A DNA stretch of 64,000 bases, taken from positions 72,280 to 136,279 of IMG/VR virus record IMGVR_UViG_3300032284_002843; one strand, given 5' to 3'. The number at the start of each line of letters is the position of its first letter. The stretch's first letter is position 1. This document shows, piece by piece, positions 52,440 to 64,000 of the stretch. The position numbers and the translations under genes are program-made. Below the pieces are notes generated by a model that was given only the letters and a program-made list of their open reading frames with translations, was not told where the DNA came from and ran no database searches. The DNA is from a virus.

Positions 52440-53557
52440 ACCCATCCTCCTGATTTGACTAAGTTGCCAGAACGAAAGTTTTCAAGATTGAAACTTCGTA
52501 GCTTGGTAGGACTATTTTGAACCGTGATTCCTACAGATATGCTGAAAACAGCCGGTAGCCATAGGGTTTGATCTTGTGTGCGACCGTTTAAGTAAGACGT
52601 TGTCAAATCACTCCAAGACCCTGTTGTTTGATCAGTCTGAACAGATCTGGACAAATCAATTGGTACATAATCAACGTCTTTTGGCAAACTTATTGTAAAT
52701 GAAGTAACAATAACTGGTAATTGATTAAACATATAACTTCCATAAGCATCGAATAGAAGAACAGGAGGCGGTGTTCCTTTATATGGATCACTTGCACCAA
52801 AATTCATTTTGCTCACAGTACGTAAGAAATGAATGCAAGCCATGGCATAGATTCCTTCTTCTTGATTTTGAACAGACCATTCACCTTCAACTGTCAGCGC
52901 TAAACTTGGAGTACGATGATATGCATAAATGTCCTGATTAGCATGTGTTAATTCCATAGATTTATAATCAACTTGTTGTTGATAAGTAATTGTTGGCTGG
53001 TAAGGCCAAATCATTCCGTTTGTTGCCCTTAACGGCGACAATATAGGACTTTGTCCATAAACTATGTCTATAGCCGCAGGTTTTGGACGAAGTCTAACAC
53101 GTCGGCCACTGCTATCTCCTACGTTAGGCGAAGGGCCTTGAGTGTCTGTGGTTGCAGCACCAGTATCAGAATTGTCAGAAGATGATGTTAGGGCATTTAA
53201 ATCTATACCTAAAGTATTGGCACTAATTCCAAATGGATTTTGACCATTAGCAAAATTATTAAGAATATTAGCTGGGTTTTGAATATAACTGGCAGCCGTT
53301 GCACCATAACTTATTATACCAGATCCCGGTAATCCTCCAGCTTTGTTGTTTGAGCTTTGAGCACCACCTATTACACCGCCGGGTCCAACATTGCTATCAC
53401 CATTTAAACTTGAATTGTAGGTAGGCGATGGCGATAATGCATTATTTGTGCCTTTAGCAACGCCAGAATTTGGAAAAAATGTAACAGATCCACCTGTAGT
53501 AGCGGGTATTTGATCATTTGGTCCAATTATTGTGCCATTTGGAGTTTTAGTTGCCAT
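52436..53557 (-). CDS. tail tube initiator/baseplate protein (gp48/gp54-like)
   Basis: PYQPTI...Y.....TH.N; G.PPPV..F.AYG..MF...PV.V.SF...LP.DVDY. Confidence 0.7.
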   Translation of the reverse strand: MATKTPNGTIIGPNDQIPATTGGSVTFFPNSGVAKGTNNALSPSPTYNSSLNGDSNVGPGGVIGGAQSSNNKAGGLPGSGIISYGATAASYIQNPANILNNFANGQNPFGISANTLGIDLNALTSSSDNSDTGAATTDTQGPSPNVGDSSGRRVRLRPKPAAIDIVYGQSPILSPLRATNGMIWPYQPTITYQQQVDYKSMELTHANQDIYAYHRTPSLALTVEGEWSVQNQEEGIYAMACIHFLRTVSKMNFGASDPYKGTPPPVLLFDAYGSYMFNQLPVIVTSFTISLPKDVDYVPIDLSRSVQTDQTTGSWSDLTTSYLNGRTQDQTLWLPAVFSISVGITVQNSPTKLRSFNLENFRSGNLVKSGGWV

Positions 53558-53619
53558 TATATCCTCAATATTATTGAATATTTATTGCAAATTTTGTAGG
53601 GTTCATTTTTCGCCGTGTT

Positions 53620-53648
53620 TTGACCATTTTATCAAAAAAGCTTACAAT
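53620..53648 (+). promoter_or_regulatory. sigma70-like promoter for the late sigma factor gene
   Basis: TTGACC-17-TACAAT. Confidence 0.6.
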
Positions 53649-53678
53649 TCAAATACTTGTCTAGACAAAGGAACTTTA

Positions 53679-54563
53679 ATGGTAACAACAGGAACAACTA
53701 AAATTAAATATCTAACCAATAAGGACTTATTGGAAGAAATTCATAAAAGCAAACTTTCTTATTGTAGTTTTACCGATCCAAAATACACATCATATGATTT
53801 TATCGTGCCAAATATTAAAAAAATAACTAAGAAAAAAATCAACGATGCACGCAGGAAAAGATTTAATGAACTAAAATCTCTGCACAAGAAACAATATGGT
53901 ACCAGCAAAAAGGTGAAACCGCCAACACTATCAAGTATAGCAGCAGACAGCATAGTAATAAGAGTAATGACATATGATCATATACCATTAGATCCTATCA
54001 AAGCTGAAACTGGAAAAACCGAAGCTGAAAAACATATCAAAGTTAATTTCCCTCCTTTCCAACACTATATTATGAAAAATAATAAACTAGTTTGTGTTTT
54101 AAAAAGTCATTGGAAAGATGGATTAAAATCTGGAGAGTTTTGCAAAGAACATGGTAAAATGACCAATCGTTTAGCTCTTATGTTTATGAAATTAGTAGAT
54201 AGATACGGACATAGAGGTAATTGGAGAGGATATACATACTTAGAAGAAATGAAGCTGCAAGCCTTGTTACAGCTGAGCCAGGTAGGCCTACAATTTGACG
54301 AAAGTCGCAGTGAGACTCCAAATCCATTTGCCTATTATACTCAAACTATTACTAACTCTTTTATGAGGGTTCTTAATATAGAGAAGAAGAATCAAAACAT
54401 ACGAGATGACTTGTTAATAATGAACGGAGCAGCTCCAAGTTATACAAGACAAACCGAAGACCACCTTAAGCAACAAGATCCCGAGGGTGGACAATCTAAA
54501 GAAGAAGCAAGTGCTGCTAAACCTACCAAAGGTAGACGTCCATATCAAAAAAAGAAATCATAA
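53679..54563 (+). CDS. late-transcription sigma factor, T4 gp55-like
   Basis: YL.NKDLL.EI, NWRGYTY.EEM, FD...S..PNPFAYYTQ...NSF...EK; upstream of gp47/gp46 as in T4-like phages. Confidence 0.85.
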   Translation: MVTTGTTKIKYLTNKDLLEEIHKSKLSYCSFTDPKYTSYDFIVPNIKKITKKKINDARRKRFNELKSLHKKQYGTSKKVKPPTLSSIAADSIVIRVMTYDHIPLDPIKAETGKTEAEKHIKVNFPPFQHYIMKNNKLVCVLKSHWKDGLKSGEFCKEHGKMTNRLALMFMKLVDRYGHRGNWRGYTYLEEMKLQALLQLSQVGLQFDESRSETPNPFAYYTQTITNSFMRVLNIEKKNQNIRDDLLIMNGAAPSYTRQTEDHLKQQDPEGGQSKEEASAAKPTKGRRPYQKKKS

Positions 54564-54637: not shown

Positions 54638-55669
54638 ATGACCAACAACAATTTAAAACAACCTGATTTTTCAAAAGTAATAATGTTCACAGACATTCAT
54701 TTTGGATTGAAGAATAACAGCAGAGAACATAATAGTGATTGTGAATCTTTCATTAAATGGATGATAGAGCAGGCTAAACAACAAAACATTAAAACCTGCG
54801 TATTTGGCGGTGATTGGCACCATGTGAGATCTGCTATTAACATTTCTACATTAAACTATTCAGTAAGTGGGCTTAAATTATTGAATGACTACTTTGATCA
54901 TACATATTTCATAATAGGTAACCACGATTTATTTTATCGTGACAAATATGAAATACACAGCCTTCCTTATATTCATCAATTTTCTAAAATTATCCCAGTT
55001 GACAAAATTATTAAAGTTGACGATGTTGCACTAGTGCCGTGGTTAGTTGCTGACGAATGGAAGAAAATTTCAAAAGTCAAAGAGCCATATCTGTTTGGAC
55101 ATTTTGAATTACCAACATTTAAAATGAATGCTATGGTAGAAATGCCCGACCACGGAGCATTAAACAAAAATCATTTTGTACATCAACAACAGATATTTTC
55201 AGGACATTTTCATAAACGTCAAAACAAAGGTAAAATCTGGTATATAGGAAATTGTTTTCCTCATAATTACAGTGATACATGGGACGATGATAGAGGCATT
55301 ATGATTTGGAACAAAGGTCAAACTCCGGAGTTTATGTCCTGGCCAGATGCTCCTAGATATCGTACTTTAACTCTTAGCCAGGTTCTATCAGATCCTGCTG
55401 AATTTATAAATGACAAAACATTTGCTAAAATTTCTATAGATGTTCCTGCTACATATGAAGACATAAATTTTATTAGAGAAATGCTGGAAAAGGAACTAGC
55501 AGCAAAAGAAATTCAAATGATTACTGCTAAAGATCAGGACATTGAATTTAATAGTAATGTAGAAGTTAGCTTTGAAAGTGTTGATTCTATTGTGATCAGC
55601 CATTTAGAATCCATAGATAGTAACACAATCGATAAGAATGAACTAATTAAAATATATCAGGAGATCTAG
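54638..55669 (+). CDS. recombination endonuclease subunit, gp47/SbcD/Mre11-like
   Basis: DIHFG, GD, GNHD, GH, SGHFH metallophosphoesterase motifs. Confidence 0.92.
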   Translation: MTNNNLKQPDFSKVIMFTDIHFGLKNNSREHNSDCESFIKWMIEQAKQQNIKTCVFGGDWHHVRSAINISTLNYSVSGLKLLNDYFDHTYFIIGNHDLFYRDKYEIHSLPYIHQFSKIIPVDKIIKVDDVALVPWLVADEWKKISKVKEPYLFGHFELPTFKMNAMVEMPDHGALNKNHFVHQQQIFSGHFHKRQNKGKIWYIGNCFPHNYSDTWDDDRGIMIWNKGQTPEFMSWPDAPRYRTLTLSQVLSDPAEFINDKTFAKISIDVPATYEDINFIREMLEKELAAKEIQMITAKDQDIEFNSNVEVSFESVDSIVISHLESIDSNTIDKNELIKIYQEI

Positions 55670-55670
55670 T

Positions 55671-57449
55671 GTGTTAACTATCAAAAACGTTACCTTACGG
55701 AATTTCCTTAGCTGTGGAAATGTTACACAAACTATTGAACTAAACAAAAATGGTCTCAGCTTGGTTCTAGGAGAAAACCTCGATCTAGGAGGTAACGGAT
55801 CTCGTAATGGTGTAGGCAAAAGTACAATATTACAAGCTATAAGTTTTGGCCTATACGGTGAAAGTCTTACCAATATCAAAAAAGATAATCTTATAAACAA
55901 AATTAATGGCAAAAATATGTATGTTTCAATTGATTTTGAGTCAAATGGGCATTCATATAGAATTGAACGCGGTCGAAAGCCAAATGTATTCAAATACATA
56001 GTTGATAACAAAAATCTAGCAGAAGCTGCTACCGACGAAGCACAAGGCGAAATAAAAGACTCTCAACAGGAAATCAATGAAATACTTGGTATGAGCCATG
56101 CTATGTTCAAACACATTGTAGCATTGAATACCTATACTGAACCATTTCTTAGTTTAGGAGCTGCAAAACAAAGAGAAATTATTGAAGAGTTGCTAGGCAT
56201 TACTATGCTTAGCCAAAAGGCTGAAAACTTAAAAGAAAAAATCAAAATCACAAAAACAAATATCGAGCAAGAAGAGTTTCGAATTAAAACTCTAAAACAG
56301 AGCAATGAAAAAATACGCAGCACGCTTGATGAAATCAAAAGAAAATCCAGTCAATGGGAAACTAAAAAACAACAAACAGTTGATGAACTTGAATCTGCTA
56401 TTAAAAATCTTGAGGTACTGGATATTGAAGTAGAGCTAGAATCACATCGTAACAATGAACTCTACAACGAACTGGTTAAAACCAAAGCACAGGTTGAAAG
56501 AGATTACACAACAAAAACACGTCATTTCAATCAACTTACTAGCCAATTAAACACTGTAATTTCATCATATGATCGTGCTAGTAATCACGCTTGTCCAACA
56601 TGTGGTCAAGATTTGCATGACGACCAACATACTGCAATTAAAAATGATTTAGAATCAAAACTTATCAGTTTAGATGAACAGGTAAAATTTGAACAAAATG
56701 AAATCAACACAGCAAAACAGGATTTAGAAAACGTAAACACAGCGCTGTTGTCGGTGAAAAAACAAAATACCGTTTACAAAAATCTTGAAGAAGCATTAAA
56801 TCATAGAAATACACTTGAAACACTGAAAAAAGAGCTAGACAAAGAGATTGCTAGCTCAAATCCATATCTTGATCAGACCAACAGTATCGGTGATACCATA
56901 CAAGAAGTCACATATGATTTACTCAATCAACTTGCACGAGATAAAGAACATCAAGAATTTCTTTTAAAACTTCTTACTAATAAAGATAGTTTCATTAGAA
57001 AAAAGATTATTGATCAAAATCTAGCATATCTAAACAGCAGGTTAAATGATTACTTAGATAAACTCGGACTTCCGCATCAAATTAAGTTCCTTAATGACCT
57101 CAGTGTGGAAATTACTCTGCTAGGCCAGGATTTAGATTTTGATAATTTGTCGCGCGGCGAACGAACTAGATTGATTCTTGGCCTAAGCTGGGCATTTAGA
57201 GATATATTTGAAAACACTAATCATCCTATTAATCTAATATTTGTTGATGAGTTGTTAGATAGTGGAATGGATCCACAAGGTCTAGAAGGATCTGTGGAAG
57301 TTCTTAAAAAGATGGAACGTGAGCGTCACAAGAATATATTTGTAATCAGTCACAGAGAAGAACTGATACAACGAGTTACTAATGTTCTGTCTGTTGTAAA
57401 AGAAAACGGATTCACAACATTTGACTGGAATCATACTGTAGTTGTTTGA
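55671..57449 (+). CDS. recombination ATPase subunit, gp46/SbcC/Rad50-like
   Basis: NGVGKST, coiled coil with CPTC zinc hook, LSRGE signature, FVDE, ISH. Confidence 0.93.
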   Translation: MLTIKNVTLRNFLSCGNVTQTIELNKNGLSLVLGENLDLGGNGSRNGVGKSTILQAISFGLYGESLTNIKKDNLINKINGKNMYVSIDFESNGHSYRIERGRKPNVFKYIVDNKNLAEAATDEAQGEIKDSQQEINEILGMSHAMFKHIVALNTYTEPFLSLGAAKQREIIEELLGITMLSQKAENLKEKIKITKTNIEQEEFRIKTLKQSNEKIRSTLDEIKRKSSQWETKKQQTVDELESAIKNLEVLDIEVELESHRNNELYNELVKTKAQVERDYTTKTRHFNQLTSQLNTVISSYDRASNHACPTCGQDLHDDQHTAIKNDLESKLISLDEQVKFEQNEINTAKQDLENVNTALLSVKKQNTVYKNLEEALNHRNTLETLKKELDKEIASSNPYLDQTNSIGDTIQEVTYDLLNQLARDKEHQEFLLKLLTNKDSFIRKKIIDQNLAYLNSRLNDYLDKLGLPHQIKFLNDLSVEITLLGQDLDFDNLSRGERTRLILGLSWAFRDIFENTNHPINLIFVDELLDSGMDPQGLEGSVEVLKKMERERHKNIFVISHREELIQRVTNVLSVVKENGFTTFDWNHTVVV

Positions 57450-57943
57450 ACCAATTCAAAGATAATATCTTTATTATCTTTGAATAAATCTTCAAAGTCA
57501 GTTACTACATAGCCTTGATAGTAACAGTGATTTTTTACCTTAAATCTATCTAGGTATTTTTTATCAAACACTGCAAAACTGCCTTTATGATTAATTCTAA
57601 AAACAACTACCCAAAAATCATCAGGATCCGCACTGGTAATAGCCTGTTGAATCCATTTATCTAATAATGGAATTGGATCTTGTTTAAGTAAATTATGAAA
57701 AGGAAAATCTCCGTAGAATTTGCTTTCAATAACCAATTTACGCATGTTACTAGGAGGAATCAAATCTGCTTTAAATGTTGCAATTTGTCCTTCGTCTAAC
57801 ATTGCCTTACGAAAACTATTAAGCCCTCCTAAGAATGCACCACTGTTCGGTACACGTAAAAATTTGGCACCATATAGATTTGTTAAAAATTCGGCAATTT
57901 TTCTTTCGCCAGAATTTCCTTTGCTTTTGCCTTTATTGCTCAT
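57431..57943 (-). CDS. Holliday junction resolvase-like PD-(D/E)xK nuclease
   Basis: KGNSGER, R.P.SGA, ADL, IESK, W..Q. Confidence 0.75.
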   Translation of the reverse strand: MSNKGKSKGNSGERKIAEFLTNLYGAKFLRVPNSGAFLGGLNSFRKAMLDEGQIATFKADLIPPSNMRKLVIESKFYGDFPFHNLLKQDPIPLLDKWIQQAITSADPDDFWVVVFRINHKGSFAVFDKKYLDRFKVKNHCYYQGYVVTDFEDLFKDNKDIIFELVQTTTV

Positions 57944-57991
57944 ATACTATCCTTAGCTTGTGCTATATTTAATACCGATCTACACATCGCA

Positions 57992-58021
57992 TTGACAGAT
58001 TTTTGCCAAGCCAGTTACACT
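57992..58021 (+). promoter_or_regulatory. sigma70-like promoter
   Basis: TTGACA-18-TACACT; GGAG SD and ATG 58043 follow. Confidence 0.55.
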
Positions 58022-58042
58022 TACAATATATGGAGTGAATAT

Positions 58043-58840
58043 ATGGAAAATTTTGATTTAGAACGACCTATTAAAAGGCGGCCACCTAGCCAACGACAGT
58101 TTGTAATTACACCAGATCCACGTTTGCAAAAAAATCTTCTTTATTTTATGCAACAAGAATTAGGTTACTATAACACACTGGTTACCAATTTCAATGCTAG
58201 AGTTAAAGCATTTCCACAGGACATACTAGCCATTAGAGATAGAGATATTAAGCTATTGGAAACCTGCGGACAATTTGCATATGATCCTGATAAGCTATTA
58301 TCAACCGATTATGACAAATGGCCCGAAGCATTTAAAAGCTACCAGTCTATAGTTTATCTTACCGAAGGTAAAACCAGAATATCGGAAAGAACGCTAGGCA
58401 TCATGAAAATAGCCACAGTTCCTGCACATATTCATCATCAAGTTCGTAGAAATATGATCAGCGAAGTGTTCGCTACTGTTAGCTCGCAGGCAAACATATT
58501 TCTAGCAGCCAAAAATACCGAGCAGCTACGTGCACCTGTGCAAATGATGCAGCCACAAACTTGGGAAACCAAGCATCATTTACAGGTACCCAAATCATTA
58601 ATTGAGATGAACTACAATGATGACACTAACTGGACTCTAATCAAAACTCCATATAACAAAGAATGGCTGACTGTGCTAGGGTACGATCTCACTGCTATTC
58701 CATATAACACTATGGTAATTAAGAGCCCAATACCAGGCGAAGATAAGCCAACATGGAGAATCGAGTTTAAAGATCAACCTAACAAATATTTGTTAAACTT
58801 AACAGATCCTCGTCCGTACAAAAAGAAAAGAAGAACATAA
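58043..58840 (+). CDS. TnpB/Cas12f REC-WED-lobe-like protein lacking RuvC (tentative)
   Basis: RQFVITPDPRLQKNLLYFMQQELGYYNTLV, IHHQVRRNMISEVF and TMVIK...WRIEF align by eye with the TnpB N-lobe pattern; the ORF ends before any RuvC-I motif. Confidence 0.55.
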   Translation: MENFDLERPIKRRPPSQRQFVITPDPRLQKNLLYFMQQELGYYNTLVTNFNARVKAFPQDILAIRDRDIKLLETCGQFAYDPDKLLSTDYDKWPEAFKSYQSIVYLTEGKTRISERTLGIMKIATVPAHIHHQVRRNMISEVFATVSSQANIFLAAKNTEQLRAPVQMMQPQTWETKHHLQVPKSLIEMNYNDDTNWTLIKTPYNKEWLTVLGYDLTAIPYNTMVIKSPIPGEDKPTWRIEFKDQPNKYLLNLTDPRPYKKKRRT

Positions 58841-58876
58841 AAAAATGCTGCAATAGCGTCCTATTGCAGCATTTTT
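58841..58876. terminator. strong, potentially bidirectional intrinsic terminator
   Basis: 16-bp perfect stem AAAAATGCTGCAATAG-CGTC-CTATTGCAGCATTTTT. Confidence 0.85.
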
Positions 58877-58950
58877 ATGGCTCATAATATGAACGTTGGC
58901 TCAGGACGTTCACATCATTATTATAGATAAACAGTTGATATAGGTCAAAT

Positions 58951-59238
58951 ATGCAGAAAAAATATTTTCCAAGTCCCAGCAAACAAAGTACAAAAAAACT
59001 GAATAGTTTTAACAAAAAAGTGAAAAAGCGTTGGGAAATAATTCAAAAAAATAATGGAAAAAGTTTAAGAAAAGAATTTGACCTAATAATGAAACTCAAC
59101 TACAGTATGTTAAATGCTCAAGAAATTGAGCAGATATGGCACACAATTGGCACACAAATAGCTCACAAACAATCTCATATAGGCTCCTTAAAAAATCTCA
59201 TTATAGACTCAATTAGGCTCACAAATAATTCCCACTAA
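58951..59238 (+). CDS. doubtful Lys-rich ORF
   Basis: 95-aa low-complexity ORF overlapping a GAAA hairpin and the repeat tract; weak SD. Confidence 0.3.
   Translation: MQKKYFPSPSKQSTKKLNSFNKKVKKRWEIIQKNNGKSLRKEFDLIMKLNYSMLNAQEIEQIWHTIGTQIAHKQSHIGSLKNLIIDSIRLTNNSH
59138..59221 (+). repeat. eight phased degenerate RRC(T/A)CA-like repeats, ~11-nt period
   Basis: ggcaca 59138, ggcaca 59149, agctca 59160, atctca 59172, ggctcc 59182, atctca 59195, gactca 59206, ggctca 59216. Confidence 0.6.
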
Positions 59239-59244
59239 AATACT

Positions 59245-59706
59245 GGCAATAAAATGGTAGTCGTGCTACCGCAGTGAAAGGTTAACGAACCGGTTAACAT
59301 ACTCACTCAAAAAGGGTCGTATCTAATAGCTCTTAAGCCCTGACCAGAAAGAGAGCAAAAAGGATTACAGCCGTAGTGTGACTACGCACCTGTAACTTAT
59401 TCAATTCTTTGCTTACATAGATTGAATAGGGCTTGGTAATACCATAACCGAGATGAAACGCAAGTTTCGAGTATAACATCCTCATGTTGGAATTAGGATC
59501 TCCGCCAACTGGCACAGCCATGGATGATGTAGCATGGATAGTTCTCATCAGAATGTCGACTATTTTTTACATACTCCCCCGCGAGGGGAGTATTATGGCT
59601 TCATTCTATCAGAATATCATTCAATTAAAGATGTTGTTTGTTGTAGTGAGCTAAAGCGAAACGTAAACAAACAACTGATGAGCGTTAAGCTCATCACTTA
59701 AACATC
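59245..59706 (+). ncRNA. putative large structured non-coding RNA
   Basis: more than 12 helices in ~460 nt, GCAA and GCGA tetraloops, long-range and pseudoknot pairings, no convincing ORF; boundaries approximate. Confidence 0.65.
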
Positions 59707-59732
59707 ACTTACCATCCACTAAATAAAATGTT

Positions 59733-60086
59733 ATGAAACTAAGTGATTTGCTTGAAAACAACGTAATTAAAACTAAGTTTGCTTTAAAACAAACACAAAA
59801 GAATTTAACTCCATATATGCATAATCCTGATATTGAAATTCCGCAATATGATCCGGATAAAAATAGTCTGTGGATATCAGGACTCAGCAAAAGCGAGCCT
59901 GAGAAATTTAAACGATTTGAAGTTGAGCCAGCTGGAAAATCATCTAGTCATATTATAGGTATAGCTGCTAATGGAAATAGAATACGTGTTAGCACTGCAA
60001 ATACTCAACTTGCTGATACTTTAGCAGATTTATATAATCGCGGTGGTTGGTCACAGCACAATTTAGAACGAGTGCAACTGAAATAA
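59733..60086 (+). CDS. late protein with MKLSDLLE N-terminus (possible head-internal protein)
   Basis: CTAAATA late box 7 nt upstream; N-terminal L-x-E motif. Confidence 0.65.
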   Translation: MKLSDLLENNVIKTKFALKQTQKNLTPYMHNPDIEIPQYDPDKNSLWISGLSKSEPEKFKRFEVEPAGKSSSHIIGIAANGNRIRVSTANTQLADTLADLYNRGGWSQHNLERVQLK

Positions 60087-60284
60087 TTAATCTGGTATCA
60101 TATTGCCGCCTTTTTTACTGCTCATAGCGGCATAGTGTTTTTCAATAGTTTTACTAAGTATTTTACGTTGATCAGCACTGAGTAAATGTGCATCGTCGAA
60201 GCTAATTCCTCCCTCCATATAAAAGACCAATGTGGATAATTCTACTGTGATAATTTCACGGTTTTTTTCCATTATGTCCAACAT
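60087..60284 (-). CDS. tail/baseplate assembly chaperone C-terminal part (probably the -1 frameshift extension of the upstream gene)
   Basis: its frame is open back to the slippery site TTTTTTC; no well-spaced SD; FYMEGGISFDDA..L...R motif. Confidence 0.7.
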   Translation of the reverse strand: MLDIMEKNREIITVELSTLVFYMEGGISFDDAHLLSADQRKILSKTIEKHYAAMSSKKGGNMIPD

Positions 60285-60310
60285 CTCAGTAATTTGAGAG
60301 GGGTCTCCTG

Positions 60311-61165
60311 TTAGGAGGATTTGCCGAAAAAACTTGATGGATCAAAGTTTAATGTTTCAGTCCAAGTATGTTCACATTTTGTGCATTGTGCTGGAAATTC
60401 TTTATTTGGACCAACAGAATTAAGCTTGTTAACAGTTTCTATTACAATATCAGCTTCTTTCTTACTGATATTAGTTAGCCATTCATTGATATGATTTTTA
60501 TCAGTTATAGTTTCATTTGTCTGTAGCAGTACAATTTTTTCTATACTTTTACTAACCAAGTCAAAGGTAATGTTGGAAATTCTATCAACGCTTTCGGCAA
60601 GTATTTTAGCTTTTTCCAACTCATCTATTTGTTTATTACTTTCGTCTATTGAACGCAATAACTTTTCTTCGGCAAATTCTCTCTTGATAAAAAGCTGACG
60701 CATTTCAAATGTATATGGTTTTACCCAGACTTCTAATTCTCCGTTAAATGTAATTTTACGATCGTTTTCATTTATAATGGTACTGGTTGCTAGCAGGCCG
60801 TTACAATTGACTTCATAGGTATTTTCATATTCGCATTTTGGACATTTTCTATCCAAATCAAACTTACCATTATTACTAGCAGCTTTCATACCTACGAAAA
60901 TGGTTTCCAAATCTGGAATTAACAACTTTTTAATATCTTTTACATCTGGTGCACAGTTTTTTATAACCTTTTCCAATGCTTGACCGTTTAACATAGCATC
61001 TGGAGTGTTTAAAAGAATGTCATCTATTGCACTTAATGGATAAATGGGAATTTCACCTTCATCGTTTAGATTTACGCTGCCATCAGTGTACCAAATTCCC
61101 AACGTTGGGAGTCTTACATATGCCCCAGCTTGTCTAAAATACTTCGATAATGGGTTATTATTCAT
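60311..61165 (-). CDS. baseplate hub/tail assembly chaperone, T4 gp26-like
   Basis: NPL..YFRQ...Y.RLP..G, D...L.TPDA.LNG, CPKC and CTKC, ends FDPSSFF. Confidence 0.8.
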   Translation of the reverse strand: MNNNPLSKYFRQAGAYVRLPTLGIWYTDGSVNLNDEGEIPIYPLSAIDDILLNTPDAMLNGQALEKVIKNCAPDVKDIKKLLIPDLETIFVGMKAASNNGKFDLDRKCPKCEYENTYEVNCNGLLATSTIINENDRKITFNGELEVWVKPYTFEMRQLFIKREFAEEKLLRSIDESNKQIDELEKAKILAESVDRISNITFDLVSKSIEKIVLLQTNETITDKNHINEWLTNISKKEADIVIETVNKLNSVGPNKEFPAQCTKCEHTWTETLNFDPSSFFGKSS

Positions 61166-61247
61166 GTAAAATTCCTTCAATAAATACAATGCGTGAAAAT
61201 ATTTATCTGAATTAAATAGGTACTTAAAAAATAAGTGATTTTGTTAG

Positions 61248-64000
61248 ATGGCTGACGATGACATAAAAAATGTAAAGATAGTTGGTGTAGATCCTAGTAA
61301 AACGCCAAAATGGGCGTTGGAAGATACTTTGGTTCAAGTGCTATCTGCAAACCGAGCCAACATCAAACTTTTGTCAAAAATGGTTGATACTAGCAAAGTT
61401 AGCGAAGCCGATCTAAAGAAAATATTAAAAGAAATAGGAGAAAGTACAGAAATTGCCAAGGATAACGGCGAAGCAGCTGAAAAGCAAACCAGCGCCAATC
61501 AAGGAATTTGGCGAAGTGGTTTCAACAAGGTTGTTAGTGCATTCCAGGAAGGTGGTCAAGCTGACAAAATACAAGCAGCACTTGAATCATTTACTAAAAC
61601 TTTATCTATAGGTAGTACAGCATTTAAGACTGACATTAATGATACATTTGCAAGATTAGGCGATGGCATACAACGTACATCAAAAGAGTTTGAGCGTACT
61701 AATCCAATTCTCAGCAAAACAGGCATGATAGTTGGATTAACTGTAGAAGCTTTTACTCAGCTTGTTAAACTGTTGCATCAGCAATATGAAACACAAATAC
61801 AATTATATAATAGTGGTATTTTAGTTGAGAATGGATTTGCAGGCCTAGCAGAAGCAGCTAAAGGTGCCGGACTAAGTGCTGAAGAATTTACAGAAATCGT
61901 TACAAAACACAGTGCTGTAGTTGTTGGCATGGGTATAAAAAATACCACAGCACTTATGAAAAATCTCAAGGAGACTACAAAAGATTTTAGCGAATTTGCC
62001 ATGTCAAATAAACAGGCAAATGAAGCAGTAATGGATACATTGGATACCATGCAACATTTTGGGCTTTTAACGTCCATGGACGAAGAGCGTAGAAATCAAT
62101 TTGTTAAAGAATACATTGTTCAATTAAATGATCTCAGTGAACAAACTGGTAAACAACGCGATGAAATACGCAAGCAGGTGGCCGAATATAGCAAAACCAG
62201 CACTGCATTTTTAACTATGCAAATGCTGCCAAAGGAAGTTCGTAAAAATTTCCAAAGCATCACTGCCGAAGCTGTAGCTAGTTTTGGACCGCAAGGTAAT
62301 AAACTAATGGACGAAATTGGCAAGTATATGGCCGGTGGTGTTGGTATGATGAATAAAGAATATCAACTTCTATTCACACAACTTGGCAAAGGTAGTGGAA
62401 AAATTCTTCAAGATATGGCCGAAGCTACTCGCCGCGGCGATGTTGAAGGATTCAAAAAAGCCAAAGAAGATTTAATTAAAAACTTTGGAGAAATGACTCC
62501 AGAACAATCAACACAATTGATGTTAATGGCAAGAAGCAATCCTGCATTGGCACAACTGGTTACTGATTTGACTCAGGCATCTATGGCTCAGAGAGATAGA
62601 GAAGCATCTCTAGACAAAGCAGCAAAAGAAGAACAAATGCGTCGCCAACTATCTGGAAAAGGTGAAACTGACTTAGCTAAGATTAGAAAAGAAATAGCTG
62701 AAAAAGAACAAAAGAGCAGAGATGCACTTAAAGCACAAACAGAAGCATTTAATCAAAGCCGTGATGCTACTTTAGCTCTGCAAACTGAATTTAATAAACT
62801 GATAGCGGAGATTAGCCCAATATTAATTCCTGCATTAAAAGCTTTATCAGCAGTGACTAACTATATAGTTGATCTTTTTAGAGGGTTGAAACAAGGTATT
62901 CAGCGTGTTTATGAAATGTTTGGCATGAGTACAGAGAATGCCGGCACAGCATCTGCGCTTACTCTAGTAACCGGTATATTAGCAGGCGGAACAATCATTA
63001 AAGTGGTTCTAGCAATTGTCAAAGCATTGGCTGGTTCAGCCTTTATGGGATTATTAGGGCTTATAAGAAAGGTAACCAACTTTGGTAAATCGCCATTAGA
63101 CAGAGCACCAGCAGAGCCACCGGGTTTAGGTGGACGAAAAGGTTCTGGATTTTTCCGAAGCATGTCTCAGACAATTAAAGATGGCGGTGGAGCAATTAAA
63201 GATGCTGTAAAATCATTTGGAGGTATTTTAAATGCTGCCGCTGGAAGTTTTATGGAATTATTGAATACTATAGCCGGCGGTGTTAAAAATCTTTTTGTTA
63301 AAATTGGTGAATCCCTGGGCGCACTTGGTAAAGGAATAGGCAAAGGTGTAGGGGCAACGTTAGAAGGAGTGTTAACCGGTATTGCTGCTGGCTTGAAAGC
63401 TCTGAGCAATCCAAAATTGTTTATAGGTGCTGCGGTCCTAGGAGTATTATCCGCAGAAGTTTGGATACTTAGTAAGGCTCTTCAAGGCTTTATGACAATA
63501 GATTGGGAAGCTATAGCCAAAGCTGGAGTAGCAATTGGGGCCTTGGGTGTAGTGGCTGCTGCTGCCGGTGCCGGTCCTGTTCCTGGATTTATCATTGCTG
63601 GCGGCCTTGCATTAGGTGTAGCTATAGGTGTTATTGGATTGGCTGTGGCAGGAGCCTCATGGATTATGGGCAAAGCCTTACCTACATTAGCCGAAGGATT
63701 AGAAAAATTTGCTAATATTGATGGCAAAAATTTAATAGATGTTGGTTTAGGAATGGTTGGCATCGGTGCCGGTCTGGCAGCTATGACCGCAGGTGCCCTA
63801 GTTAACAAATATGGTTCATTAGTTGATGGGTTATTTGGACTTTTCTCAGCCGATCCTATGGAGAGACTGAAAAAATTTGCGGAAATAGACTTAAAGAAAC
63901 CAGCCGATTCAATACAAGCATTGAAATTAGCCTTGGAAGGTTTTACATCGGATTCGTTTAAAGGACTTAAAGAATTTTTAGAAACATTTAGTTCACGTGA
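61248..64000 (+). CDS. tape measure protein (5' part; runs off the window and is not in the ORF track)
   Basis: MADDDIKNVKIVGVDP... frame appears open to the window end; long helical region then an Ala/Gly-rich hydrophobic region; TAAATA boxes upstream; adjacent to the chaperone genes. Confidence 0.8.
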   Translation, partial: MADDDIKNVKIVGVDPSKTPKWALEDTLVQVLSANRANIKLLSKMVDTSKVSEADLKKILKEIGESTEIAKDNGEAAEKQTSANQGIWRSGFNKVVSAFQEGGQADKIQAALESFTKTLSIGSTAFKTDINDTFARLGDGIQRTSKEFERTNPILSKTGMIVGLTVEAFTQLVKLLHQQYETQIQLYNSGILVENGFAGLAEAAKGAGLSAEEFTEIVTKHSAVVVGMGIKNTTALMKNLKETTKDFSEFAMSNKQANEAVMDTLDTMQHFGLLTSMDEERRNQFVKEYIVQLNDLSEQTGKQRDEIRKQVAEYSKTSTAFLTMQMLPKEVRKNFQSITAEAVASFGPQGNKLMDEIGKYMAGGVGMMNKEYQLLFTQLGKGSGKILQDMAEATRRGDVEGFKKAKEDLIKNFGEMTPEQSTQLMLMARSNPALAQLVTDLTQASMAQRDREASLDKAAKEEQMRRQLSGKGETDLAKIRKEIAEKEQKSRDALKAQTEAFNQSRDATLALQTEFNKLIAEISPILIPALKALSAVTNYIVDLFRGLKQGIQRVYEMFGMSTENAGTASALTLVTGILAGGTIIKVVLAIVKALAGSAFMGLLGLIRKVTNFGKSPLDRAPAEPPGLGGRKGSGFFRSMSQTIKDGGGAIKDAVKSFGGILNAAAGSFMELLNTIAGGVKNLFVKIGESLGALGKGIGKGVGATLEGVLTGIAAGLKALSNPKLFIGAAVLGVLSAEVWILSKALQGFMTIDWEAIAKAGVAIGALGVVAAAAGAGPVPGFIIAGGLALGVAIGVIGLAVAGASWIMGKALPTLAEGLEKFANIDGKNLIDVGLGMVGIGAGLAAMTAGALVNKYGSLVDGLFGLFSADPMERLKKFAEIDLKKPADSIQALKLALEGFTSDSFKGLKEFLETFSSR

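Follow-up and report, generated by a model that had tools for sequence, protein, structure and literature searches.

The 64,000-nucleotide (nt) stretch of DNA analysed here (the window) corresponds to bases 72280-136279 of the 136,279-base IMG/VR virus record IMGVR_UViG_3300032284_002843, for which CheckV gives a completeness of 32%. On the plus strand, at 58043-58840, it carries an open reading frame (ORF) for a protein of 265 amino acids (aa) that is probably a maintained, stand-alone WED-REC-WED lobe of the TnpB/Cas12 fold, lacking RuvC and TNB, and that would probably act as a non-cutting nucleic-acid binder of uncultured jumbo myophages. The coding sequence runs from ATG 58043 to TAA 58840 and was delimited from the ORF translation, family alignments, an AlphaFold2 (AF2) model and fold searches. 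A Shine-Dalgarno sequence read from the DNA, GGAG at 58031-58034 (plus strand), lies 8 nt 5' of the ATG. A longer frame is possible from TTG 57992, but the ATG is preferred because of the GGAG at this distance and because all close homologues begin at an equivalent Met. The stop codon is directly followed by an intrinsic-terminator hairpin (58841-58876) with a 16-bp perfect stem and a 4-nt loop, an inverted repeat that is 100% complementary and is followed by a T run. Since A and T runs flank it on both sides, this terminator could act in both directions, and it is not assigned to a strand.

Upstream, a consensus scan found a candidate sigma-70-like promoter (TTGACA-18 nt-TACACT, 57992-58021, plus strand) that matches at 10 of 12 positions. 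Of the 17 closer related loci examined, 15 also have a TTGAC element 35-72 nt 5' of the start codon, and in several of them TACACT follows; distant loci were left out of this count because the choice of start codon is unreliable there. The recurring motif suggests that, in contrast to the late structural genes around it, the gene could be transcribed by the RNA polymerase of the host; it might be expressed early. The fuller form TTGAC(A/T)-~17-18 nt-TACACT occurs 5' of the family gene in the window (within 57944-58042) and likewise in loci L025, L026, L029, L031 and L033.

The protein is basic (pI 9.43, net charge +9), and its short conserved C-terminal tail consists of Y249, an acidic position (D/E255) and a basic K/R run ending in YKKKRRT. 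The idea that the Y249...D255 motif might be left over from the first strand of RuvC was set aside. The single cysteine (C75) leaves no possibility of a CxxC zinc finger, and no TNB zinc finger was found; neither was any GIDLG-like or D/E/D RuvC stretch in the translated 265 aa. The preliminary description of the window, made from the letters alone, had reported a basic tail, the absence of RuvC and zinc-finger motifs, and an intact promoter, Shine-Dalgarno sequence and terminator; all of these are borne out, the promoter as a candidate, by the translation, the DNA sequence, the consensus scan and the perfect 16-nt repeat with its T run.

The protein belongs to a large family with conserved ends. 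A word-indexed homologue search returned 11 proteins, 9 of which are 261-265 aa long, the two shorter ones coming from contigs of only 774 and 817 bases. An exhaustive profile search extended this to 178 representative clusters (50% identity) at E<=1e-3, of which 125 were at E<=1e-10 and 26 at E<=1e-30. Members of the best 150 of these 178 clusters are 71-345 aa in length, with matches that reach the end of the query, and none of them is as long as TnpB. A separate search of the 465-2000 aa length class found no homologue either, although this is weak evidence. After fragments and partial matches had been excluded, 113 of the best 150 clusters were aligned together with the close homologues. 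The 113 aligned members are 245-345 aa long and have both ends in common, with median values of 9.37 for pI and +9 for net charge. Conservation is at least 90% at E39, N44, Q149, K177, H179, Q181 and W238, and complete at Y249. Y249 is followed by a median of 23 and a maximum of 64 residues, so that there is no room for a RuvC domain. Searches by blastn and tblastn (the latter with three members) gave no match in 50,697 GenBank phage records, and a scan of metagenomes yielded only two short loci, neither with flanks.

From the 113 sequences AF2 produced a compact model with a predicted local distance difference test score (pLDDT) of 95.1 and a predicted template modelling score (pTM) of 0.90; all five models reached a pLDDT of at least 94.5. 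An earlier model built from 11 sequences was poor (pLDDT 60.8) and was not relied on; its Foldseek list leaned to Cas12f. The 113-sequence model contains an N-terminal recognition lobe made up of a WED strand (residues 19-22), a REC helical insertion (26-158) and a WED beta-barrel of six strands between 179 and 243. The protein stops about 22 residues past the last WED strand, and no RuvC domain, active or degenerate, is present.

When the model was compared with the Protein Data Bank (PDB) using Foldseek, all of the matches listed down to rank 45 were Cas12, TnpB, Fanzor, TranC or CasLambda proteins, the best being 8hr5_A (E 6.2e-4) and the first unrelated one appearing at rank 46. Re-scoring with VIA-align placed all 50 of the matches listed in the TnpB/Cas12/Fanzor superfamily (Z 10.1 to 7.0), with model residues 15/16-245 lying on 2/3-209 of AsCas12f, 3-174 of ISDra2 TnpB and 133-307 of Fanzor2. 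A VIA-align comparison with 48,161 PDB representatives, independent of Foldseek, gave the same picture: the top 26 matches were all TnpB, Cas12 or Fanzor (Z 10.0 to 5.4), and the best unrelated structure had Z 5.3. The leading matches were 8dzj_A (Z 10.0, root-mean-square deviation (rmsd) 3.4, 163 residues aligned, model 16-246 on chain 3-209) and Fanzor2 9b0l_P (Z 9.7). ISDra2 TnpB was matched at Z 9.0 both in 8h1j_A (model 15-245 on chain 4-174) and in 8ex9_A (chain 3-173), where RuvC is unresolved and only 166 residues are resolved. In BFVD, a fold search returned two family members first and then giant-virus TnpB/Fanzor "transposases". The proposal in the preliminary description that the protein matches the REC/WED lobe of TnpB therefore holds as far as fold and order of elements are concerned, the N-lobe of TnpB, Cas12f and Fanzor having been matched specifically.

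It does not hold at the level of sequence. The preliminary description had read the TnpB consensus by eye along the protein, a resemblance that is not above chance, since searches of Pfam, PHROGs, NCBIfam, PADLOC, PDB sequences and a TnpB profile gave nothing significant. In Pfam the query itself hit only unrelated, sub-threshold RalF_SCD (E 0.019) and LemA (E 0.079). The 113 members produced three chance-level matches, to FAM184, ATLF and AAR2, in one member each (E 0.003-0.006), and none of them matched the TnpB families HTH_OrfB_IS605 and OrfB_IS605 at E<=0.01. PHROGs, NCBIfam and PADLOC were negative for the ORF and the family alike, as were PDB sequences searched with two family profiles. 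A TnpB profile was built from Escherichia coli InsQ and 13 phage TnpBs that are 25-39% identical to it, and hhalign of the family profile against these 14 sequences was not significant (probability 0.18, E 0.33); nor was hhalign against InsQ alone. The one TnpB alignment that hhalign offered is colinear and pairs N44, nearly invariant in the family, with the Asn that is invariant in the N-terminal motif of TnpB, an agreement that was not counted as support.

Several of these results weigh against the interpretation given at the outset. The structure is predicted, not solved, and because no link was found in sequence, the case for common descent with TnpB is made by the fold. Moreover, the best Z, about 10, exceeds only moderately the values of 7-8 that, according to the tool, are typical of models without a clear match, and for this reason the argument from fold leans on the exclusivity of the match list and on coverage of the whole lobe. 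The resemblance might then reflect analogy or very deep ancestry, an OB-like barrel with a helical insertion having arisen, or persisted, independently of IS200/IS605 elements and without any domestication of TnpB. The moderate Z scores of 8-10 and the lack of significant TnpB similarity by any method tried speak for such an origin. We nevertheless consider it unlikely: the matches are exclusive to one superfamily and extend over the whole lobe, in the right order of strand, helical insertion and barrel. WED and REC are, in addition, the least conserved parts of proteins within the TnpB/Cas12 family, which counts against reading the silence of the sequence searches as separate ancestry. Language-model features from the ESM Atlas, which can serve as leads only, point the same way. 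The nearest clusters (scores 0.96-0.93) are short, 157-226 aa, and carry the labels Aq_aa04, SSO2105_N "transposase (fragment)" and MJ0013; 178 features are shared with Aq_aa04, and one neighbouring cluster has HTH_OrfB_IS605 on 12% of its members.

Compared with TnpB of the IS200/IS605 family (ISDra2 structures 8h1j, 8exa, 8ex9 and 8bf8; ISFba1 8iaz), the phage protein is similarly basic and shows WED-REC-WED in the same order, model residues 15-245 superimposing on chain residues 3-177 at Z 8.5-9.2. It differs in lacking RuvC and TNB, in its fixed, non-mobile locus, in the absence of detectable sequence similarity and in a longer REC bundle of about 133 residues (26-158). The best structural matches are Cas12f (AsCas12f 7wju, 8dzj and 8j12; CnCas12f1 8hr5) and Fanzor2 (9b0l), with Z 10.1-9.6, rmsd 3.4-3.9 and 159-170 aligned residues; unlike these the family has no nuclease lobe, and no CRISPR array was noticed close to the gene (no search aimed at one was made). 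The Pfam 38.1 families Aq_aa04 (PF27142), SSO2105_N (PF27229) and MJ0013 (PF27234) are short like the phage family, but their names are automatic labels, their nearness is by language-model features only, and their clusters are bacterial and archaeal whereas the family comes from phage.

The closest functional parallel may be TldR, the TnpB-like, nuclease-dead repressors (Wiegand et al. 2024, in the portion consulted), in which a TnpB-type scaffold has been re-used without cutting and some of which are phage-encoded. In the accounts of TldR available in part, the protein keeps a degenerate RuvC that helps to hold the guide RNA and has lost at most RuvC-III or the C-terminus, whereas here the whole lobe is missing. 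A census of TnpB and Cas12 describes, in the sections covered, many exapted and inactivated TnpBs, the most reduced of which, flagellin-TnpB, lacks RuvC-III only (PMC10691335). The re-uses of TnpB found in print, namely Cas12 effectors, Cas12k, Cas12m, TldR and the sigma-, flagellin- and DppD-associated forms, all keep the RuvC fold, active or dead, in the parts of PMC10691335 and PMC13622181 that were available. Work on Fanzor, again as far as its text was covered, reports 166 candidates without an alignment to RuvC, which were treated as partial proteins or false positives (PMC10432273). No published family consisting of WED and REC only was found in the full-text literature, a coverage outside which supplementary tables fall (e.g., that of the exapted clades in PMC10691335). 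The present family is real, conserved and well populated, and judging by the model it would belong with the TnpB-derived non-cutting proteins. If so, a phage family that keeps the recognition lobe only would show this lobe to be a self-sufficient module, with a bearing on how TnpB was assembled and on the minimum size of a programmable or sequence-reading binder.

As for function, a free lobe would most plausibly bind DNA or RNA, because the groove in which TnpB and TldR read the duplex of the transposon-adjacent motif (TAM) and hold the guide-target duplex is formed by this lobe. The cryo-electron microscopy structure of TldR, in the portion of PMC13622181 that was available, shows REC and WED together forming the groove that holds the TAM duplex. 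With a groove for duplex that it would share with TldR, a basic charge and a candidate early-type promoter of its own, a non-cutting binder, most likely of DNA, is the best-supported role. The lobe would then recognise DNA (or RNA) by sequence or structure, and binding might regulate or protect phage or host nucleic acid early in infection. One point tells against so simple a transfer of function from TnpB. In TldR the guide RNA follows a surface to which both RuvC and WED contribute, and two RuvC helices are all of that domain that is ordered on the RNA in the binary complex (PMC13622181, same portion). Much of the ancestral hold on RNA may therefore have gone with RuvC, whereas the groove that reads the duplex would be kept more easily.

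The genes around the ORF include one for a gp55-like late sigma factor (about 53679-54563, plus strand), so named because of where it lies and because it resembles the gene with this annotation in PA5oct and Atu_ph07. The ORF as listed (53532-54563) begins at a GTG far upstream of the likely Met, and the gene precedes gp47, as it does in those two phages. For the family of the 265-aa protein, an hhalign comparison with the gp55-like sigma factor of PA5oct was not significant. There follow a gp47-like gene (54638-55669), a gp46/Rad50-like gene (55671-57449) and, divergently on the minus strand at 57431-57943, a PDDEXK_15/RusA-like resolvase-type endonuclease gene (Pfam PF24608, E 8.7e-20; phrog_244). 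Beyond the family gene lies the gene for the baseplate hub (60311-61189, minus strand), and a long tape-measure-like ORF is also among the neighbours. No transfer RNA gene was found in the window. Sinorhizobium phage Phosso, Pseudomonas phage PA5oct and Agrobacterium phage Atu_ph07, which have genomes of 286-490 kb, encode gp46-like proteins that share 47-48% identity with the one in the window.

The arrangement was compared in 27 related loci (L003 and L024-L049; some are near-duplicates, and L024 is on the same contig as L002). A gp46-like gene is upstream in all 27 and a PDDEXK_15 homologue directly upstream in 21. The baseplate hub is downstream in 20; the remaining seven have 202 to about 1,540 bases 3' of the gene, mostly too short to reach it. 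The family is thus a lineage-specific gene of jumbo myophages related to PA5oct, Atu_ph07 and Phosso, with a slot between gp47/gp46 and the baseplate hub. Across the 27 loci its protein is 25-53% identical, compared with 46-72% for gp46, so that it evolves faster than its neighbours yet keeps its boundaries; with the nearest loci at most 53% identical in protein, synonymous sites are saturated. A further point against the interpretation preferred here is that PA5oct and Atu_ph07 have a like gene order but only small hypothetical ORFs in this slot, from which it follows that the gene is not essential to the lineage.

This fixed position bears on two of the alternatives. One is that the gene is what remains of a decayed insertion sequence (IS), or of a full-length tnpB that was truncated recently. 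The absent C-terminal half is all that speaks for this, and the idea is almost certainly wrong: a gene in a constant slot between gp46 and the baseplate hub is not debris, and the conserved boundaries and near-invariant residues of the 113 aligned members, the lack of TnpB-length relatives in the searches described above, the gene's own Shine-Dalgarno sequence and terminator, and the compact, high-confidence fold all contradict it. That the gene is maintained had been argued in the preliminary description from its signals; the uniform length of the close homologues, the common end of the best 150 clusters, the slot and the upstream motif now bear this out. The other alternative is analogy. The position is the same in all 27 loci and no IS200/IS605 mobile context was found there (no search aimed at TnpA was made), and a fixed locus without transposon context speaks for a fold of independent origin. 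A split nuclease was considered and set aside: the 136-kb record holds no RuvC/TNB half elsewhere, which is weak evidence with a record 32% complete. PF01385 had no match in this record, and the single match to PF07282, which lies in the gp46-like gene, is below threshold, with 16 bits where the cut-off is 26.3.

An accessory gene that is present in some related phages and absent from others, evolves faster than its neighbours and has an early-type promoter candidate could also be an anti-defence gene. As a more speculative explanation, the free lobe might act as a decoy that soaks up guide RNAs of Cas12- or TnpB-type systems of the host or occupies their protospacer-adjacent motif (PAM) or TAM sites. 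We regard this as very unlikely, as PADLOC gave no match and the fold searches showed no similarity to described anti-CRISPRs.

Between the terminator of the family gene and the baseplate hub there are two further features. The first is a gene at 58951-59238 (plus strand) for a small basic protein of 95 aa (pI 10.26). In 8 other loci a homologue of 84-98 aa occupies the corresponding position, and open frames of about 120 aa occur in some loci. The small proteins share an N-terminal motif resembling K-K-F-F-P as well as a Phe and a Trp that are invariant, and have no family in Pfam, PHROGs, NCBIfam or PADLOC. This ORF is usually found just upstream of the RNA described next, also in loci without the WED-REC gene, and its connection to that gene is uncertain; a complex prediction for the 265-aa and 95-aa proteins scored 0.00 and gives no verdict. 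Inside the 3' part of the small ORF, at 59136-59169, there are three copies of an 11-nt unit with the consensus ATGGCACACAA. Part of this segment is conserved in L003, where there is no small ORF of at least 70 aa, and it may therefore double as an upstream or promoter region of the RNA.

The second feature is a structured non-coding RNA at 59240-59712 (plus strand), with a core at 59240-59601 and a variable 3' part that ends in a hairpin at about 59683-59703. Nucleotide conservation sets in at 59240 (nhmmer E 7e-49 to 2e-17 in 8 loci, in which the identity of the WED-REC proteins to the query is only 29-48%). RNAalifold gave a consensus of 70 pairs and compensatory changes in 38. After the alignment had been trimmed, the paired fraction of cells was 94.1%; sliding the 3' partners lowered it to 37-47%. 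Changes on both sides were seen in 36 of 66 pairs but in only 7-17 after sliding, and no shuffle out of 500 came as high. G-U pairs in the consensus favour the plus strand. The core comprises 362 nt and 12 helices, with a GNRA-capped hairpin and two conserved TCAGAA motifs. Rfam had no match at E<=1 in 56000-61500, and no guide segment was identified in the RNA.

A covarying RNA downstream of the gene on the same strand raises the question of whether the protein is half of a ribonucleoprotein, binding the RNA at 59240-59712 as TnpB binds its omega-RNA and acting as an RNA-guided, non-cutting DNA binder like TldR. Linkage was examined starting from the RNA, with a covariance model (R1) and an IMG/VR scan for a short invariant pattern that gave 79 pattern loci. 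A full-length R1 match was present in 31 of them, 6 being contigs already in hand and 25 new. In these 31 loci the RNA always lies between the resolvase-type gene and the baseplate hub of the phage clade, with or without the WED-REC gene. The family gene is directly upstream on the same strand in 13 of the 25 new loci (about 5 distinct lineages, judged by identical bit scores; one is cut by the locus edge), and in some about 20 nt separate its end from the RNA. Identity in one other metagenome is about 94% over the RNA part, compared with about 84% at the 3' end of the gene. Four more of the new loci have less than 360 nt of upstream sequence. The remaining 8 (about 5 distinct lineages) show the same synteny of gp47, gp46, PDDEXK and RNA but have no family gene at any point of the locus, the small ORF preceding the RNA in 7 of them. 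One of these 8 belongs to a complete genome of 518,643 bp with terminal repeats that contains no family member, as determined by a search that was positive in two complete control genomes, G002 and G003. Conversely, in L025-L028 the family gene is present without the cassette of small ORF and RNA and is directly followed by the baseplate hub, and R1 is missing from three genomes of 416-465 kb, each at least 90% complete, that do contain the family gene.

The protein and the RNA are thus frequent neighbours in one variable slot, but they are separable. Since each occurs without the other in complete genomes, and with a strong terminator between gene and RNA in the window, an RNA partner is a doubtful, minority reading. 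RuvC, absent here, moreover carries much of the guide-RNA contact in TldR (PMC13622181, as far as available). A stand-alone lobe that binds nucleic acid without an obligate RNA remains the interpretation we prefer.

A distant subfamily (L043, L044, L045 and L048) again speaks for an RNA partner, as its members have a different GC-rich non-coding stretch of about 850 nt in the same place. This conserved stretch directly follows the family gene (L043:5757-6620), and its hairpins covary by eye in the 416-465-kb jumbo phages. Part of it matches the Rfam family EGFOA (RF02955) at 36.1, 35.1 and 34.8 bits, slightly short of the gathering score of 37.7. For the EGFOA RNA no partner is known, and recent work, in the part of the report available, shows that it assembles into oligomers made of RNA only (bioRxiv 10.64898/2026.07.01.735769). 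A broader proposal would be a new class of nuclease-free ribonucleoprotein, in which the recognition lobe and a structured RNA of 360-850 nt, joined in some lineages by the small basic protein, target DNA or RNA without cutting. We consider this improbable. If true, TnpB evolution would have had a third outcome next to Cas12 and TldR, with the RNA serving as scaffold in place of the lost RuvC lobe.

Whatever the function, these loci mark a variable slot of jumbo phages that holds a protein with a TnpB-lobe fold and previously undescribed structured RNAs. A partnership between the protein and the divergent PDDEXK gene was set aside, its basis being adjacency only. The orientation of that gene varies with the content of the slot: in five loci without the WED-REC gene (L067, L051, L109, L055 and L092) a PDDEXK-type gene is on the plus strand directly after gp46, whereas in loci with the WED-REC gene it is usually on the minus strand. 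The slot has therefore undergone rearrangement and was not simply filled or emptied.

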